From assembly GCA_963789825.1 (NCBI GenBank), contig CAWBME010000005.1, positions 257,239 to 321,238 of the forward strand: a stretch of 64,000 nt of DNA, given 5' to 3'. Numbering within the stretch: the stretch's first letter is position 1; each line of letters opens with the position of its first letter. Of the stretch, positions 1 through 50,275 are shown one piece after another. The notes under the pieces were generated by a model. It ran no database searches. It saw only the letters and a program-made list of their open reading frames with translations, and was not told the DNA's origin. Source of the stretch: an uncultured Chloroflexia bacterium (GTDB taxonomy: Bacteria; Chloroflexota; Anaerolineae; Anaerolineales; E44-bin32). The position numbers were made by a program, and so were the translations under genes.

Positions 1-1972
1 AAGTAGAAGCCGGTCCGGCCGTCCGGGTAGGGCAGCGTGCGCTCGACCTGCACGCCGGTGATCTTGGGGTTCTGCAGAATGGCTGCGTACTCCTCCGGCG
101 TGAGCACGAAGAGCAGCTCCCGGGTCAGTTCCCCAAAGTCTGCTAAGAAGCCGTCGGCATTGGAGACTTCGATCGGAGCTTCGTCGGAGATGAAGAAGCG
201 CTTGACGACATCGATCCCGTTGCCCCAGGTCGGCGAGACCAGCACGCGCTGATCGGGATTCGCCGCCACCACTTCGCTCACGGCGCCAAAGACCTGGGAG
301 GCGCCGTACTGCATCTCCATGCCGTACTCGCGATTCCACGTGGGCCCGTTCGCCAGCGCGTCCCGCAGCATGGCGAGGTTCACGCCGGCCAGGGCGACGA
401 ATACGATTGCCGCTACGGCCGGCGCGCTGCGTGGCGCCCGGCGGACCAGCCACTCCAGCGGCAGATCTACCCCAATGGTCACCAGCATCGTCGCCGGGAC
501 GACGAACGACAGCAGGCGAGTGATGCCTGCCCCGGCCACGGCGCCGGCGAGCGGGACGGCCAGCAGGCAGGCCAGCACGGCGCGATAGGCGGGATCGCGC
601 CAGCGCCGAACGGCCGCGACCAACCCGATCAGAGCCAAGGGCGCCATCCAGCGCGCCATGTGGCCGTAGCCCAACATCGTGTGCCGTGGCAGGTCATGCG
701 CCTGCGGCCAGAACCAATAGGCCGGGCTGATGCCGCGGCCGTAGGCCTGGAGCGAGAACAGGATCTTCCCAGCCAACGGCCCACCCTCCGCCCAGGGGCT
801 GGCCAGGATGCGCAGGATCTCCGGCTGCGCCTCCGGCATCTGCAGGTAGAAGCGCAGGTAGGGAAGCGCCAGAAGGGCCAGAACGAGCACCCCGCGCAGC
901 ACCACCGTGCGCTGGCGGCGATGGTAGGAGAAATCGGACACCACCAGCAGCGCCGCCGTCGCCGGGAGGATGATCTGCCCTGGGCTGTAGGTGTAGAAGG
1001 CCATCGCTCCGAACACCATCGCCAGGTACAGGCTCTTGGGTGACCGCAGCCGGTAGCGCAAGTAGAAATACAGGAAGCAGGCATAGAACGAGACCATCAG
1101 CGTGGTCTCGAAGGCAGTACGCGAGTGCAGGAACCAAGCTGGCACTGCCGAGAACAGGAGCACACCGACCCACCACAGGCGCAGGCGGAAGAAGTCGCGC
1201 AACGCGAAACCCGATAGCGAGCGCCCCGGGAAGGGTGAGCAGGGCAGCGGTGGCCCGCGTCGACGAAGACCGACTTGCCAAACAGCAAATACGGAATGAC
1301 CTGGGCGTAGACCGACAGGCTGAGGTTGAAACGATAGACATTCTGGAAATAGGTCGGGAAGTAGTTGCCGAGGAAGTCGCGAAAACCATCACGCACGAAG
1401 TCCGCCGCCAGCACGGTCTGCACGGCTTCGTCGGTGAAGAAGTAGATCGGGAAGTCGGCTAGGCGGATCAGGCGCAGAGCAAGATAGACCGCCAGCGACA
1501 GCCCGAACAGGACAAGGTCGAAGGCGGGACGCGTGGCAAGAGGACTGCGACCGCCAGTGAGCGGCGCCGACCAGGCGGCGATCTGGGAGCGCAGGCCTGC
1601 CCGCCGAGGGCGCTGCGGTGGCTCCGGCGCTGCAGCCGGGAGCATCTCCAGCTGAGGCTGTGCTGCCACGGAGGGGACTTCGTCCATCGAGGGTGGCGCC
1701 TTCGGGGTGGGCGCCTCGCCCACGGCGTGCTGGAAGATCACTCGCGGCCACTCGCCGGGTTGGGCGGCTTCGACCGTCAGCCGAACCCGGGTGCCGGGGG
1801 GAACCGTCACGCCCAGGGCAACCGACTCCGTGCCCGGAGGTGCGTCCTTCGACGGCTGCTGTTCGAAGGTCAGCTGAGGGCCAGCATCGGGGAGGGTGGG
1901 CTCGCGCCGCCCAGGCTTGCCCCGGCTGGCCTTTCGCCGGCCCTTGGCTCGCTGCCCTTCTCTCGAAGTCAT
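1..1972 (-). CDS. GT-C fold membrane glycosyltransferase, family 39 / ArnT-PMT-like (paralog 1); C-terminus lies beyond window start; two apparent frameshifts near 1200-1260
   Basis: ORF 1097..1972 gives ...FPIYFFTDEAVQTVLAADFVRDGFRDFLGNYFPTYFQNVYRFNLSLSVYAQVIPYLLFGKSVFV. The continuation TRATAALLTLPGALAIGF, then ALRDFFRLRLWWVGVLLFSAVPAWFLHSRTAFETTLMVSFYACFLYFYLRY..., lies in the other two minus frames. The last frame stays open to position 1 (manual translation). Multi-TM pattern typical of ArnT/PMT enzymes. Confidence 0.6.
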
Positions 1973-2017: not shown

Positions 2018-2563
2018 CTACTGCAGCGCTTGGCGCACTTCTTGGGTCAGTTCCTCGATGGGCACGTACATCACGCCCCGATTCTCAGCTGCCCCGTAGT
2101 CCTGCAGCCACACCAGCCGGCCGTCTTCATCGACCAGGGCGAAAGTATGTCCGGGCTCGCCCGATGCGACTGCCCACTGCAGAACGCCATAGGCTTCGGA
2201 CACCGAGTGGTCGGCATCACTCAGCATCGGTACGGAGGTGATGCCCAGGGCCTGCGCCTCCGGCGCCATTTCCTCGACGGAGTCGAAGGCGATGCTCAGC
2301 ACCGGGACTCCGAGGGACTGAAACTCAGGATCGTTTTGCAGGTCGACGACCTGCTGCATGCAAGGCGGTCAACCGACCGCCATGTGGAAGAAGAGCAGCA
2401 CCGGGCTGACGCCGGTGAAGTCGGATAGAGCGACCTGGGCGCCGCCGACCGCCGGCAGCGAGAACCCAGGCGCCTCATCGCCGACCTGCAGTCCGGCCGC
2501 AGGAGCGGACCGGCACCCGGCCAGGGCGAGCGCAGCGAAGAAGGCGAGTACCGTTGCACGCAT
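2018..2563 (-). CDS. Exported lipoprotein, thioredoxin-fold redoxin/peroxiredoxin-like; probable selenoprotein with U-P-P-C redox motif (TGA at 2369-2371 read as Sec)
   Basis: ORFs 2369..2563 and 2018..2359 share one frame and are split only by TGA. The joined sequence is MRATVLAFFAALALAGC...VSPVLLFFHMAVG-U-PPCMQQVVDLQNDPEF...GHTFALVDEDGRLVW. It has a lipobox (LALAGC) and a redoxin-like core, and the stop codon sits at the CxxC first-Cys position. Confidence 0.7.
2338..2354 (-). promoter_or_regulatory. Candidate SECIS hairpin 14 nt 3' of the in-frame UGA
   Basis: The minus-strand RNA GCAGGUC-GUC-GACCUGC forms a perfect 7-bp stem with a G/U-containing loop. Its position relative to the UGA is compatible with bacterial SECIS elements. 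Confidence 0.4.
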
Positions 2564-2635
2564 GGCTTCTCCTCAGGGGGCTGGCCCGGCTGTGCCGGCA
2601 TCGTTCCGATCTGGCCCGCCCTCACCGCCGACATT

Positions 2636-4610
2636 CTACTCGGACACCACCCAGGCCAGGATGGGCGGATTGCCGGGCATCTCCTCGAGGGCGATTTCTG
2701 CCCCGGTAGGATATGCTGCGCGGATCCGTGGGAGGATGTCCTGCTTCTCCAGAAGGAAGACGAAAGCATAGGGTGCAGATCCTGCCGGGCAATCCTGGCT
2801 GAGGGGCCAGGCGCCGTCACAGACGGGACGGCCCTGGATCAGGTAGTTCAGACTGGGGAAATTGGCGAAGCTCAGGCGCGGCTCGCCGAAGAGCACAACG
2901 CCGGTTTCCGGTGGAAGCTCGGCGGCAAACTCACCAACCACCCGGGCGGCGTAGGTAGCACTGTCGCCGTAGGCCCCGGCTGGGATGGCCTCGACGAAGA
3001 AGAAATGGGCTTCCCGCACAGCTACCAGCGTCACTGCCTGCAATCGTGCAGATGGCGACCAAACGCCGCAGCGCAGGGGAGGGAATTCCTCTGGCTTGCT
3101 CAACGATCCAGGCCGGGGCGCATGCGGCGATCATCGCTAGCACCGGCAAGATGCCCTGCATGCGGTGCCCGTTGGGAGCCTCCACGCTAAGGGTCCCGAC
3201 GAGGATCGCGCCCGTGAGCGCGCTGAGCAAGATCAACGAGCGCGGGTCGCGGAGGTTGCGCAGCAGGAGCAAACTGCCCAGGCAGAAGAGCACGGCGCTG
3301 AGTGGGAAGAGCATCGGCTGCGTCGGGTGATAGATGCCGCGAATCGGGACCGCCACCAGCCCGAGCACAGAGGTCCAGAACTGCGTCGGCAGCTCGCCCT
3401 GCGAGAACACGCGTGGGCCGTCTCCACCGGACAGCAGGCCTGAGATGTCGGCGACGGCCACGCCGCTCAAGGGGGCGGTGAACTCGTTGGGATGCGCCAC
3501 GAAGAAGAGCGTCAGCGGCAGGACCGTAACCAGACTCACCAGGACCAGGCTGAGCACTCCCTGCACCCGGTCTCGGGCGGGCCAGGTCATCGCAAGGATC
3601 ACCAGCCATAGCGGCACAGCCAGCACCAGCAGCCGGCCCGTTGGATAGAACAACTGCCCAAGCCCGATGGCGAGGCCGGAGAGAAGGAAGGCCCAGCGGG
3701 CGTTGGTCGTCCAGGCGACCCAGAGCGCCCCGATCACCAGCGCCAGGAAGAAACCGTCCCAGACGTTGTTGACCGCGATCCGGCTGAACATCAGGTGGAC
3801 GTGGGAGCCGGCCACGAGCAGCGCCGCGAAAGCCCCGTGAGCCCGGCCGTATAGACGCGAGCCCGTCCAGAAGGTAGCCAGCACGGCCAAGACCCCACCG
3901 ACGGCAGAGGGCAAGCGGGCAGCGAGCAGCGTCGGCCCCAGCCATCGCTGGGACAGGCTGACCAGCCAGAAGTAGAAGGAAGGGAAGGAGTGCCACGCCG
4001 TGCCGAACAGATTGGAGCGCGTTGCGCGGAGGAACTCCAGCCCGGTGATGGCTCCCGAGCCCTCGTCGCCGTTGACAGCGAAGGGGATGGTGTCCATCCG
4101 GTACAGACGCAGCGCCAGGGCGAGCAACCCGAGGCCGATCGCCAACGCCAGCGGGACGAAGGACTTGCGGTCAAGGTGCGGGCGCTCGCCTCGGTTCCAC
4201 AGGCCGGCCGCAGTGAGCACGATCCCACCGGCCCACAACCATCCGTGCATCGTCGAACGCGCCATGGCTTCATCGCCGGTCGCAGAGGCGGCGCCGAGCG
4301 CCAACAGCAGCCCATTGAACAGCAGCACGACCTGCGGTGGCGAGACGCCCAGCCAGCGCCCTAGGCGCTCCACCCCGGCCCATAGTGGCCGGAACCAGCG
4401 CCCGTCGTCGACCTCGAGCCCCAGGAAGAACAGCGTCAGCCCGGCGCCCAGAATCAGGGCGTTGATCAGGACTGACTGCGTTCCCCACAACAGCGCCAGG
4501 CCGACTGCTGCGAGGGCGAAACCGTCGAGCAGACAGATCGTCTGCTCATTGGCAAGCTTGCGCGATGGGGGAGTCTCCGAGTCAGCGGTTTGGAGGCTCA
4601 GCACGGCCAA
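2636..4610 (-). CDS. GT-C fold membrane glycosyltransferase, family 39-like (paralog 2); apparent frameshift near 3100
   Basis: The 559-aa ORF 2931..4610 is multi-TM (…RLYRMDTIPFAVNGDEGSGAITGLEF…HSFPSFYFWLVSLSQRWLGPTLLAARLPSAVGGVLAVLATFW…). The soluble C-terminal domain continues in ORF 2636..3103 in another frame. Confidence 0.65.
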
Positions 4611-5951: not shown

Positions 5952-6063
5952 GGCTTCCTCCTTCAGCGTGGAGTCAGTCTAGAGTATAGTGCAGGAGCAT
6001 TTCCGCTGCCCGCGGCGTCGCGGTAGAATCCTCCTCCAGTCCCCTGAAAATCGCGAGGCGTGC

Positions 6064-6384
6064 ATGGCCGAGGCAATCAGCCCGGAGATCTTCCAGCACT
6101 TGGTCGGCCTGGCGGCGCTCGAGCTGGACGCCGGGGAGGCGGAGTACCTGCGCCGCGAACTGAACAGCCAGCTCAAGGCGATCCGCGAGCTGGAAGCCAT
6201 TGACCTGGACCCGGCGACGCCGATTGCCTCCCACGGAGTTCCCTACACGCCGGGGACCAGCCAGCCGCCGCGCGAAGATCGCGCGCAGCCCTCCGGGCTT
6301 GCCGACGACATCCTGGCTCAGGTGCCCGAAACCGAAGGCCGCTACATCGTAGTCCCCGATATCCCGCACACGGAGCTGGAATGA
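6064..6384 (+). CDS. gatC: Asp/Glu-tRNA amidotransferase subunit C
   Basis: MAEAISPEIFQHLVGLAALELDAGEAEYLRRELNSQLKAIRELEAIDL... is GatC-like. Its stop overlaps the gatA start (ATGA at 6381-6384). I chose the internal ATG at 6064 within ORF 5989..6384. Confidence 0.85.
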   Translation: MAEAISPEIFQHLVGLAALELDAGEAEYLRRELNSQLKAIRELEAIDLDPATPIASHGVPYTPGTSQPPREDRAQPSGLADDILAQVPETEGRYIVVPDIPHTELE

Positions 6385-49777: not shown

Positions 49778-50275
49778 TCAAGAGGGCCCAGGGTGTGACG
49801 GCTCTTCCTGGTGCAGCTCCCGCAGGATCTCCAGGATCTCGGCGTTCTCGGGAATCTCCGACATGGAATGACCGTAGTGGGCATAGCGGGCGGTTCCCTG
49901 GCGGTCGACGATCACCTGCGCCGGCATGCGCCCCAACTTGAACAGGTTGACCTCCTGCCCGAACAGCCGGAGCACCTTGTGCTCGGGATCGGGAAGGCCG
50001 ATGAACGGCAGGTCGTGCTCGGCCCAGTAGGCGCGAAAGGCGTCGGCGGTGTCTGGCCCAACGACGACGATCTCGGCGCCGGCGGCGACAAACTGGGGAT
50101 GGTCCAGGCGCAACTGCGCCATGTGCCGGCGGCAGAACGGTCAGGTGAAGCCGCGATTGAAAACCAGGACGAGCGCCTTCTCCCTCGACAGGTCGGACAG
50201 GCGGAACGACTTGCCAGTGAAGTCCTGGAGTTCGAAATCCGGCGCCGGCAGACCCAGGGCGGCCTTGGGGCTCAT
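49778..50275 (-). CDS. PRX_like2-type thioredoxin-fold protein; probable selenoprotein with U-P-F-C redox motif (TGA at 50141-50143 read as Sec)
   Basis: MSPKAALGLPAPDFELQDFTGKSFRLSDLSREKALVLVFNRGFT-U-PFCRRHMAQLRLDHPQFVAAGAEIVVVGPD...MPAQVIVDRQGTARY.... The TGA is in frame and sits at the first Cys of the FxRGxWCPxC motif. GGAGGTG RBS before ATG 50275. Confidence 0.7.
50114..50135 (-). promoter_or_regulatory. Candidate SECIS hairpin 5 nt 3' of the in-frame UGA
   Basis: The minus-strand RNA CUGC(C)GCC-GGCACAU-GGCGCAG forms a 7-bp stem with one bulged C and a 7-nt loop beginning GG. Confidence 0.4.

Follow-up and report, generated by a model that had tools for sequence, protein, structure and literature searches.

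The question raised by this locus is whether an in-frame TGA on the minus strand (2369..2371) is a genuine stop codon or the selenocysteine (Sec) codon of an exported redox protein. The window is the whole stretch of DNA that was analysed (64,000 nucleotides).

One gene across an in-frame TGA

The minus-strand frame 2563..2018 translates as MRATVLAFFAALALAGC...LLFFHMAVG-[TGA]-PPCMQQVVDLQ... and is terminated by TAG (2020..2018). Read through the TGA, it is a complete selenoprotein gene of 181 codons (2018..2563, minus strand; ATG, 2563..2561), in which the TGA is codon 65 (U65). A Shine-Dalgarno-like GAGGAG, called on consensus resemblance only, is found 5 nt 5′ of the ATG (2569..2574, minus strand). 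The initial annotation described two ORFs in one frame, split only by this TGA. This description is borne out by a single Pfam AhpC/TSA match (PF00578; peroxiredoxin-like, Prx-like, thioredoxin fold) that crosses the TGA: residues 27-151, 2111..2485, minus strand, E 1.9e-23, 83 bits vs a cut-off of 26. The Pfam Redoxin match likewise spans the TGA.

TGA occupies this column in each of 80 related loci, all taken from species-representative genomes (Chloroflexota and Actinomycetota), and in three metagenome contigs (L001, L086, L087) whose database translations show W there; this is far beyond chance. The family-wide tally at the Sec column is 84 TGA, 1 TGC and 1 TGG. The TGC (Cys) is carried by ortholog L003, with the motif GCSPC; the TGG is carried by ortholog L002. 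The conserved motif around the TGA is FHMAxG-U-PPC, and the redox motif U65-P-P-C68 (2360..2371, minus strand) is defined by translation and homolog alignment. Members of a broader, more distant family (35-47% identity) have Cys at the Sec column (GCxPC). Cys homologs, both L003 and this broader family, thus align their Cys with the TGA, as had been anticipated. Three sequences with W at this column (P0002, P0004, P0028) were rejected as evidence for Trp: the W comes from translation of TGA with code 4, on short contigs.

At codon positions 1/2/3, variability amounts to 0.23/0.23/0.45 on the upstream side of the TGA and to 0.13/0.09/0.36 on the downstream side. Variation is dominated by the third position, in the same frame on both flanks, so both sides of the TGA are coding. 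The TGA is almost certainly the Sec codon of an exported Prx-like lipoprotein.

The N-terminus (MR-ATVLAFFAALA-LAGC) consists of MR, a hydrophobic core and a lipobox, and forms a lipoprotein signal peptide (2513..2563, minus strand) in which Cys17 is the predicted lipidated residue. The lipobox LAGC (codons 14-17), noticed initially, fits the pattern [LVI][ASTVI][GAS]C and is kept among orthologs. The pattern matches 63 of 84 ortholog N-termini; the remaining ones, read by eye, have LQAC, LPAC or LTAC, which lie beyond the limit of the regular-expression search. Essentially all orthologs have [AG]-C after a hydrophobic stretch. The conserved lipobox supports the earlier proposal of an exported selenoprotein; the rarity then attributed to such proteins has to be qualified, since exported thioredoxin-fold selenoproteins have precedents.

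A covarying hairpin downstream of the TGA

A perfect 7-bp hairpin had been reported to start 14 nt after the TGA, and was found there (2338..2354, minus strand): GCAGGUC (2354..2348), loop GUC (2347..2345) and GACCUGC (2344..2338). It overlaps codons Q70-Q76 and its folding energy is -10.1 kcal/mol. In the family alignment, 95% of hairpin cells are paired, vs 12-36% for slid controls, and the helix is recovered independently by RNAalifold. In alignment A2, pairs 36-46 and 37-45 alternate between G-C and A-U, and one-sided intermediates are absent. These switches occurred independently at least 6 times (pair 36-46) and at least 4 times (pair 37-45). In one of the two pairs, both changes are synonymous (CAG to CAA, CTG to TTG).

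The published criteria for bacterial SECIS elements (bSECIS) are an apical loop of 3-9 nt, an upper stem of 4-16 bp, a G at loop position 1 or 2, with G or U usually coming next, a distance from UGA to apical loop of 16-37 nt and a minimum free energy (MFE) of -7.5 kcal/mol or lower (PMC13188914). The loop has 3 nt, or 5 nt with its closing C-G pair open, and the stem has 7 bp here and 6-7 bp in the family as a whole; both sizes are within range. A GUN loop is seen at all 82 loci, in agreement with the loop criterion; its G and U also begin an invariant Val codon, so that their conservation cannot be separated from that of the protein. The distance from UGA to loop is 21 nt at every locus, with zero indels, and falls within the required spacing. 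The window hairpin passes the MFE limit; across the family, 49 of the 82 core hairpins pass it by themselves, and 73 of the 82 regions taken from UGA to +44 do so. The earlier suggestion that this hairpin is a bacterial SECIS is thus supported by every published criterion and by compensatory covariation.

The peptide that overlaps the hairpin has 7 forms in 84 genes of the Sec clade vs 50 forms in 53 proteins of the Cys clade, which indicates an extra constraint on this peptide in the Sec clade. The hairpin is lost in the TGG ortholog and retained in the Cys ortholog. No Rfam match to the hairpin was found, either at gathering thresholds or in a permissive E-value scan of 2200-2500. The MFE z-score of the region against shuffles is weak (-1.2). 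The single-sequence MFE fold of 2300-2375 has an alternative helix that takes in the UGA; it was rejected, the covarying hairpin being preferred.

Proposed decoding and function, and competing readings

The main reading, given a probability of roughly 0.87, is an exported Prx-like lipoprotein with the active site Sec65-Pro-Pro-Cys68, whose UGA is decoded as Sec via the SECIS, and which has a reductase or peroxidase role. Sec insertion itself, cellular location, chemistry and substrate are worded here as expectations from the gene and its alignments. The UGA (2371..2369) would be decoded as Sec during translation. The 6-7 bp hairpin with its GUN loop, which lies within the coding sequence of QQ[IV]VDLQ, would act as a bacterial SECIS and would be expected to recruit SelB carrying Sec-tRNA(Sec). 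The conserved lipobox suggests that the pre-protein is exported, lipidated at Cys17 and anchored to the outer face of the cytoplasmic membrane. According to the CxxC-type alignment, Sec65 would make the nucleophilic attack and Cys68 would act as the resolving residue; the resulting Sec65-Cys68 selenenyl-sulfide would have to be recycled by some extracytoplasmic reductant. Most probably, the protein would reduce oxidised exported proteins in the manner of TlpA, ResA or Etrx, or serve as a selenol peroxidase. In many lineages, this role may be tied to copper export and c-type cytochromes.

This last link comes from the genomic neighbourhood. In 19 loci (about one quarter of the orthologs), the gene is immediately preceded on its own strand by one for a copper-exporting ATPase, either CopB-like, with CPH, or CopA-like, with CPC and HMA domains. 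About 10 loci have a cytochrome c gene as a neighbour, and a fusion to cytochrome c is seen in one homolog. At 67% GC, ORF-based clustering of neighbourhoods gave noisy results: one "cluster" consisted of an antisense ORF running across the gene, and unrelated genes were lumped together through their response-regulator domains. Only the ATPase and cytochrome c links were retained, after tblastn and Pfam checks. A broader proposal is tentative and less likely than not: the family would be an unrecognised, obligately Sec-containing family of extracytoplasmic lipoproteins coupled to CopA/CopB copper export and c-type cytochromes. Present catalogues would miss it, since all gene callers either split the gene or render the TGA as Trp. 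If coupled to copper, the protein could, for example, repair copper-damaged exported proteins or handle Cu(I) directly via a Sec/Cys/His/Met site.

The same neighbourhoods are among the arguments for a function mainly in binding or handling soft metals (Cu(I)/Hg(II)), Sco-like or copper-chaperone-like, instead of disulfide reduction or peroxidase activity. This function is rather unlikely. Its candidate ligands are Sec65, Cys68 and perhaps His60, Met61 and His139; the two His and the Met are invariant or nearly so. Two subtypes of copper exporter precede the gene, the TGG ortholog lies amid MerR, MerA-like and HMA genes, and the table of a selenoprotein review includes metal-handling selenoproteins. 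Against it, no metal gene adjoins in about three quarters of the loci, the window included, where the neighbours are PMT_2-like glycosyltransferase genes and not copper or cytochrome genes. The spacing is UxxC here vs CxxxC, with a distal His, in Sco/SenC; a Pfam search of the joined protein gave no SCO1-SenC hit, and the best fold matches are peroxiredoxins.

The UGA might also be read through without Sec, a near-cognate or suppressor tRNA inserting Trp, Cys, Arg or Gly and the hairpin only slowing termination. Genome-wide reassignment of TGA was rejected on stop-codon usage in the window: TGA is an ordinary terminator, as had been noted from the outset, and the commonest one, ending 22 of 31 long ORFs, among them the gatC-like ORF 5989..6384. 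In 79 of 82 loci the base after the TGA is C, which makes for weak termination. Searches for Sec machinery gave no hit: SelA, SelB and SelD had no match by tblastn with E. coli queries in the window and 1.29 Mb of related flanks (window searched to E = 10; the positive control worked), and ARAGORN found no tRNA-Sec in the window or the 83 loci. With about one chance hit expected, this negative does not argue for absence of the machinery. The Sec trait is nevertheless documented in Anaerolineales, single-cell genomes of which have a Sec-containing formate dehydrogenase and SelB (PMC4959059). The one ortholog with TGG would fit insertion of Trp, but it is a single case in which the hairpin is lost. 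Moreover, the column is that of the nucleophilic Cys of CxxC, filled by Cys in homologs, and the hairpin fits every bSECIS criterion. Read-through without Sec is therefore very unlikely.

A second window gene of the same architecture also argues against it and supports Sec decoding in this genome. This gene (49778..50275, minus strand; 165 codons; TGA 50143..50141, codon 45) would encode a cytoplasmic UxxC Prx-like selenoprotein of the FNRGFx-U-PFC family, whose nearest NCBIfam model is "SelL-related redox protein". Its hairpin (GGCGC-AGUU-GCGCC; 50120..50107, minus strand) lies 20 nt downstream of the TGA and is nearly invariant; 59 of 61 metagenome loci retain the TGA. Both genes have an AhpC/TSA fold, a UxxC motif, a downstream SECIS hairpin and truncation by gene callers. 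The second differs by having no signal peptide, another hairpin and a much larger family (5390 hits).

Still less probable is a genuine stop, in which the locus would be a pseudogene, or would encode a 64-residue lipopeptide and a 113-residue protein, as annotated by gene callers. Nearly all database entries are indeed C-terminal pieces of 113-115 residues or N-terminal pieces ending in FHMAVG, and an ATG follows the Cys codon in the window. UxxC is followed by ATG in only 50 of 82 loci and by another codon in the remaining 32, so this ATG is no internal start. One domain extends across the TGA, more than 80 species show coding selection on the two halves in a single frame, and the C-terminal piece would have neither active site nor signal peptide. 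That TGC, TGT or TGG was misread or misassembled as TGA can practically be discarded: both flanking genes are frameshifted relative to intact orthologs, which shows that the assembly is not flawless, but the same TGA recurs in 83 independent assemblies, which many projects produced.

Members of the family occur widely in Chloroflexota, and their genes are split at the TGA in public catalogues. The splitting by automated annotation that had been foreseen is seen in nearly all database entries, which are C-terminal or N-terminal fragments; others carry a spurious W. Hundreds of family entries are truncated "peroxiredoxins" of 113-115 residues or have a spurious Trp from code-4 gene calling; truncated and code-4 entries alike are devoid of the real active site. 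A dedicated model would mend annotations across Anaerolineales and related Actinomycetota, and the corrected annotation would raise selenoproteome counts in a phylum thought to be selenoprotein-poor. The family would be a clear case of selenium chemistry on the outer side of the membrane, in which Sec is almost never swapped for Cys. The recurrent copper-exporter link is a testable lead on function, and a SECIS over the strongly constrained peptide QQ[IV]VDLQ is a compact example of dual coding.

Comparison with known systems

No NCBIfam model, selenoprotein models included, reached its cut-off, so the function rests on distant similarity. Scores and cut-offs (bits) are: Bcp, 55.5 vs 140; SelL-related redox protein (NF040769), 41 vs 120; ResA, 35 vs 170; PrxU, 33.5 vs 270; PrxQ, 24 vs 260. 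The AlphaFold2 model of the Cys ortholog has a pLDDT of 88.6, and its best Foldseek matches in the PDB are peroxiredoxins (TM 0.64-0.81).

Peroxiredoxins (Prx1, AhpE, Bcp/PrxQ and PrxU, the last with TxxU) are the best structural matches and belong to the same Pfam family. They differ by the motif PxxxTxxC, with the catalytic residue last. In the phmmer alignment to 4kw6, the canonical PxxxT/SxxC is absent: Sec replaces Thr, His60 is at the Pro position and C68 is at the peroxidatic position.

Etrx1/Etrx2 of S. pneumoniae (2yp6, 4hqz), ResA of B. subtilis (1st9) and TlpA are likewise membrane-anchored or lipoprotein extracytoplasmic proteins of thioredoxin fold. Sec aligns with the first Cys of the WCxPC of Etrx/ResA (UPPC vs WCGPC/WCEPC). 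The features of the ResA/TlpA type, CxxC at the start of helix 1 and extracytoplasmic location, have their counterparts in the UPPC alignment and the lipobox. These proteins differ by using Cys; the similarity is weak (E about 1e-7 to 1e-4) and the fold is nearer to peroxiredoxins.

The hairpin resembles the E. coli fdhF-type SECIS and the bSECISearch consensus: a coding-region stem-loop with a loop beginning G-U, 21 nt from the UGA, and a 7-bp stem. It differs from the fdhF type by a minimal 3-nt loop, no bulged U and no sequence similarity.

Selenoproteins with PF00578 and UxxC or UxxU are named "Prx-like thiol:disulfide oxidoreductase" (PMC9312934), so UxxC proteins of thioredoxin fold are, as first presumed, a known class. 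The reference is WP_010940744.1 (Geobacter), in the catalogues of Kryukov and Gladyshev and of Zhang and Gladyshev. By its PF00578 domain and UxxC motif, the gene is a new member of this class, with which it shares the AhpC/TSA domain, Sec as first residue of UxxC and a SECIS in the coding region just downstream. Within the class, it belongs to a distinct Chloroflexota/Actinomycetota clade, set apart by description: a lipoprotein signal, the motifs FHMAxG-U-PPC and GEPGHTF and an almost exclusive use of Sec.

The interrupted gene and its relatives

The minus-strand frame from ATG 2563..2561, with GAGGAG 5 nt upstream, to TAG 2020..2018 is interrupted solely by TGA 2371..2369 and reads MRATVLAFFAALALAGC...SPVLLFFHMAVG-[TGA]-PPCMQQVVDLQND... 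When the stop was replaced by Cys, a single Pfam match to AhpC/TSA (residues 27-151, E 1.9e-23) crosses the TGA, as does one to Redoxin. The two ORFs that the initial annotation had described as split by TGA 2369-2371 in one frame are therefore halves of one domain, and the gene is a single unit. TGA terminates 22 of the 31 long ORFs of the window, the gatC-like one included; it is thus an ordinary terminator here and the recoding is local, as had been proposed, rather than due to an alternative code.

A search of 5.8 billion proteins returned 488 relatives. The close ones are nearly all 113-115 residues long, cover the C-terminal 62% only and start at the Met after U-P-P-C; other fragments, P0153 and P0196 among them, stop exactly at ...FFHMAVG. 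Gene callers therefore cut the family at the same codon everywhere, which is the splitting and truncation that had been predicted for automated annotation. W occupies the Sec column in a few full-length entries; the DNA is TGA for P0002, P0004 and P0028 (contigs of about 900 bp-1 kb), so this W is an artefact of code 4 translation. A Trp-variant reading of loci L001, L086, L087 and L088 (P0002, P0004, P0028, P0272) was rejected for the same reason. Such artefacts take the form of full-length 'GWPPC' or 'RGFxWPFC' proteins, Trp-like in appearance only. Genuine replacements are TGC in P0005 (locus L003), giving GCSPC, and TGG (Trp) in P0006 (locus L002, 2474-3028 of SMUX01365537.1), the only such case.

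When each GTDB species was scanned through a single genome, 80 loci were recovered, mostly from MAGs of Anaerolineales or other Chloroflexota, with about a dozen from Actinomycetota. TGA is found at the Sec column in 80/80, inside LL[FY]FHMAxG-U-PPC-[ML]QQ[IV]VDL[QE]N. Exhaustive phmmer with the Cys ortholog as query reached a broader, membrane-anchored family (35-47% identity; ...F[HN]EG[VI]G-C-xP-C-W.QI...) with Cys at the TGA column; homologs, like L003, thus place Cys where this had been expected.

Some MAGs carry two family copies: L007 and L023 (CAWBYY010000011.1), L010 and L032 (JBJYWI01), L038 and L039 (DASWJQ010000060.1). The last two are identical and face opposite ways on a shared contig; this points to either an inverted duplication or an artefact of assembly. 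L027 (JAIWHF010000120.1), binned as a Methanosarcinales archaeon, and L066 (CAXMRF010000071.1), binned as Nitrosomonadaceae, carry typical Chloroflexota-type members, so both contigs are probably mis-binned.

The hairpin covaries and matches the bacterial SECIS consensus

The hairpin GCAGGUC-GUC-GACCUGC (2354..2338, minus strand) is, as first described, a perfect 7 bp stem starting 14 nt after the TGA. When 82 loci are aligned without gaps, columns 33-39 and 43-49 form the two strands of its helix. Standard pairs fill 95.2% of the helix cells, versus 12-36% in controls whose 3' partner was slid by 1-3 columns. Among distinct sequences, 71 have G-C and 10 have A-U at pair 36-46, while 71 have A-U and 10 have G-C at pair 37-45, with 0 one-sided or broken intermediates at each. 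Both changes of the 36-46 switch are silent (CAG to CAA for Gln, CTG to TTG for Leu), and the switch is not explicable by protein selection. In a neighbour-joining tree for which the hairpin columns were left out, pair 36-46 changed independently at least 6 times and pair 37-45 at least 4 times; RNAalifold independently found pairs 34-48 to 38-44.

The published bacterial consensus (PMC13188914) has a loop of 3-9 nt with G within its first two positions, mostly ahead of a G or U, a stem of 4-16 bp, 16-37 nt from UGA to loop and an MFE not above -7.5 kcal/mol. A GUN loop is present in 82/82 loci, the stem has 6-7 bp and the spacing is 21 nt; the window hairpin has an MFE of -10.1 kcal/mol, and 49/82 core hairpins and 73/82 regions from UGA to +44 are at or below -7.5 kcal/mol. 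Its identification as a bacterial SECIS is supported. The loop G-U is also imposed by a Val codon, the single-sequence fold is unexceptional (z = -1.2), and no Rfam family matches the hairpin. The helix is gone in the TGG ortholog (decay CTG to TTA) and kept in the single Cys ortholog. The overlying peptide has 7 forms in 84 Sec-clade genes versus 50 in 53 Cys-clade proteins. The narrower range agrees with an extra constraint at the RNA level, but divergence is also greater among the sampled Cys-clade proteins.

At the basal pair (columns 33/49; window 2354, 2338), 59 loci have G-C and 22 have A..G. C49 to G (Gln to Glu) is always accompanied by a synonymous G33 to A, and the tree requires at least 5 such joint changes, even though A.G is a non-standard pair.

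Protein identity and gene neighbourhood

MR, a hydrophobic core and LAGC together make up a lipoprotein signal at the N-terminus, and essentially all orthologs have [AG]-C after a hydrophobic stretch, in agreement with the exported, lipobox-bearing protein first described. Matches to solved structures are weak and form two groups. In the extracytoplasmic thioredoxin-family proteins (Etrx lipoproteins of S. pneumoniae, 2yp6 and 4hqz, and ResA), the counterpart of Sec is the initial Cys of WCGPC; in the alignments to peroxiredoxins, Cys68 pairs with the peroxidatic Cys, and the conserved Thr of TxxC stands opposite Sec. The AlphaFold2 model of the Cys ortholog (pLDDT 88.6) has a Prx-like fold, nearest to Prx1, AhpE and Bcp4 (TM 0.64-0.81). 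No NCBIfam model reached its cut-off (Bcp 55 vs 140 bits, SelL-related 41 vs 120, ResA 35 vs 170, PrxU 33 vs 270). The protein therefore has a Prx-like fold; its centre is of the CxxC type, and Sec would be the N-terminal nucleophile there.

Two PMT_2-like glycosyltransferase genes flank the gene in the window, as they do in the closest relatives, L004 and L005. Those of the window (2636-4610 and 3-1972, minus strand) are each split across frames, at about 3028-3033 and about 1232-1262; their L004 orthologs are intact (655 and 814 residues, about 85% identical), and the split genes are either real pseudogenes or products of assembly indels. A P1B-type ATPase gene is directly upstream on the same strand in 19/82 loci, CopB-like (His-rich N-terminus, CPH) or CopA-like (two HMA domains, CPC), the subtypes being assigned by these motifs. 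A gene for a CxxCH cytochrome c lipoprotein adjoins in about 10 loci (about 0.6-1.3 kb upstream in L023; directly downstream in L007, L010, L016, L069 and L083), and P0126, a homolog, ends in a fused cytochrome c domain. Around the TGG copy lie genes for MerR, cytochrome c, an HMA protein and a MerA-like reductase that contains an HMA domain. These neighbours point to, but do not establish, a role tied to copper stress or to cuproprotein/cytochrome maturation; the copper-exporter link is a testable lead on function. A metal-binding role is unlikely without being far-fetched.

Probable Sec decoding, a second UxxC gene and known families

With the ribosome at the UGA, SelB carrying Sec-tRNA(Sec) would bind the hairpin. 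Export would come next, together with lipidation; Sec65 could attack a disulfide, sulfenate or peroxide substrate, Cys68 would resolve the adduct to a selenenyl-sulfide, and a membrane reductant may recycle the latter.

Readthrough of the UGA without Sec is improbable. The only tRNA gene in the window is tRNA-Glu, and tblastn with E. coli SelA, SelB and SelD (positive control successful) gave no match, neither in the window nor across 1.29 Mb of related flanks; with about 1 chance match expected, this negative weighs neither for nor against Sec decoding. Sec decoding is supported indirectly by Sec-containing formate dehydrogenases and SelB in Anaerolineales single-cell genomes (PMC4959059), and by a second gene of the window, retrieved by a GC3-based scan of every in-frame TGA. 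This candidate (50275..49778, minus strand, 165 codons) encodes a cytoplasmic AhpC/TSA protein without signal peptide, ...VLVFNRGFT-[TGA 50143..50141]-PFCRRHMAQL..., whose one AhpC/TSA domain (residues 8-131) bridges the TGA; its closest database homologs are C-terminal fragments of 114 residues. Its family includes genuine Cys forms (RGFACPFC, RGFMCPFC, RSFVCPFC), and the 'W' form (P0272, L088) has TGA in the DNA. Among 81 loci (80 from a metagenome scan, plus L088), the motif pattern was located in 61, with TGA in 59/61 and TGC in 2/61. The 14-nt hairpin GGCGC-AGUU-GCGCC (50120..50107, minus strand) is nearly invariant despite overlapping Ala, Gln, Leu and Arg codons.

True termination at the TGA is still less probable. 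The family genes close with TAG (31), TGA (29) or TAA (23); variability at codon positions 1/2/3 is 0.23/0.23/0.45 over the 20 codons upstream and 0.13/0.09/0.36 downstream, which indicates coding selection in one frame on both halves, and ATG follows the Cys codon in only 50/82 loci, so the C-terminal piece has no conserved start of its own. With 84 TGA, 1 TGC and 1 TGG, the clade almost always uses Sec. A sequencing error is scarcely credible. The original call of a probable selenoprotein is correct.

The practical value of the finding is annotation repair. Three selenoprotein families had been credited to Chloroflexi (PMC1794560). Selenoprotein families are named in reviews by domain and motif (PMC9312934); by this convention, the combination of PF00578 and UxxC denotes a known family, 'Prx-like thiol:disulfide oxidoreductase'. 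The best NCBIfam model for the second gene, below cut-off, is the SelL-related redox protein. The class of the lipoprotein is thus already known, and its clade appears to have been without annotation so far.
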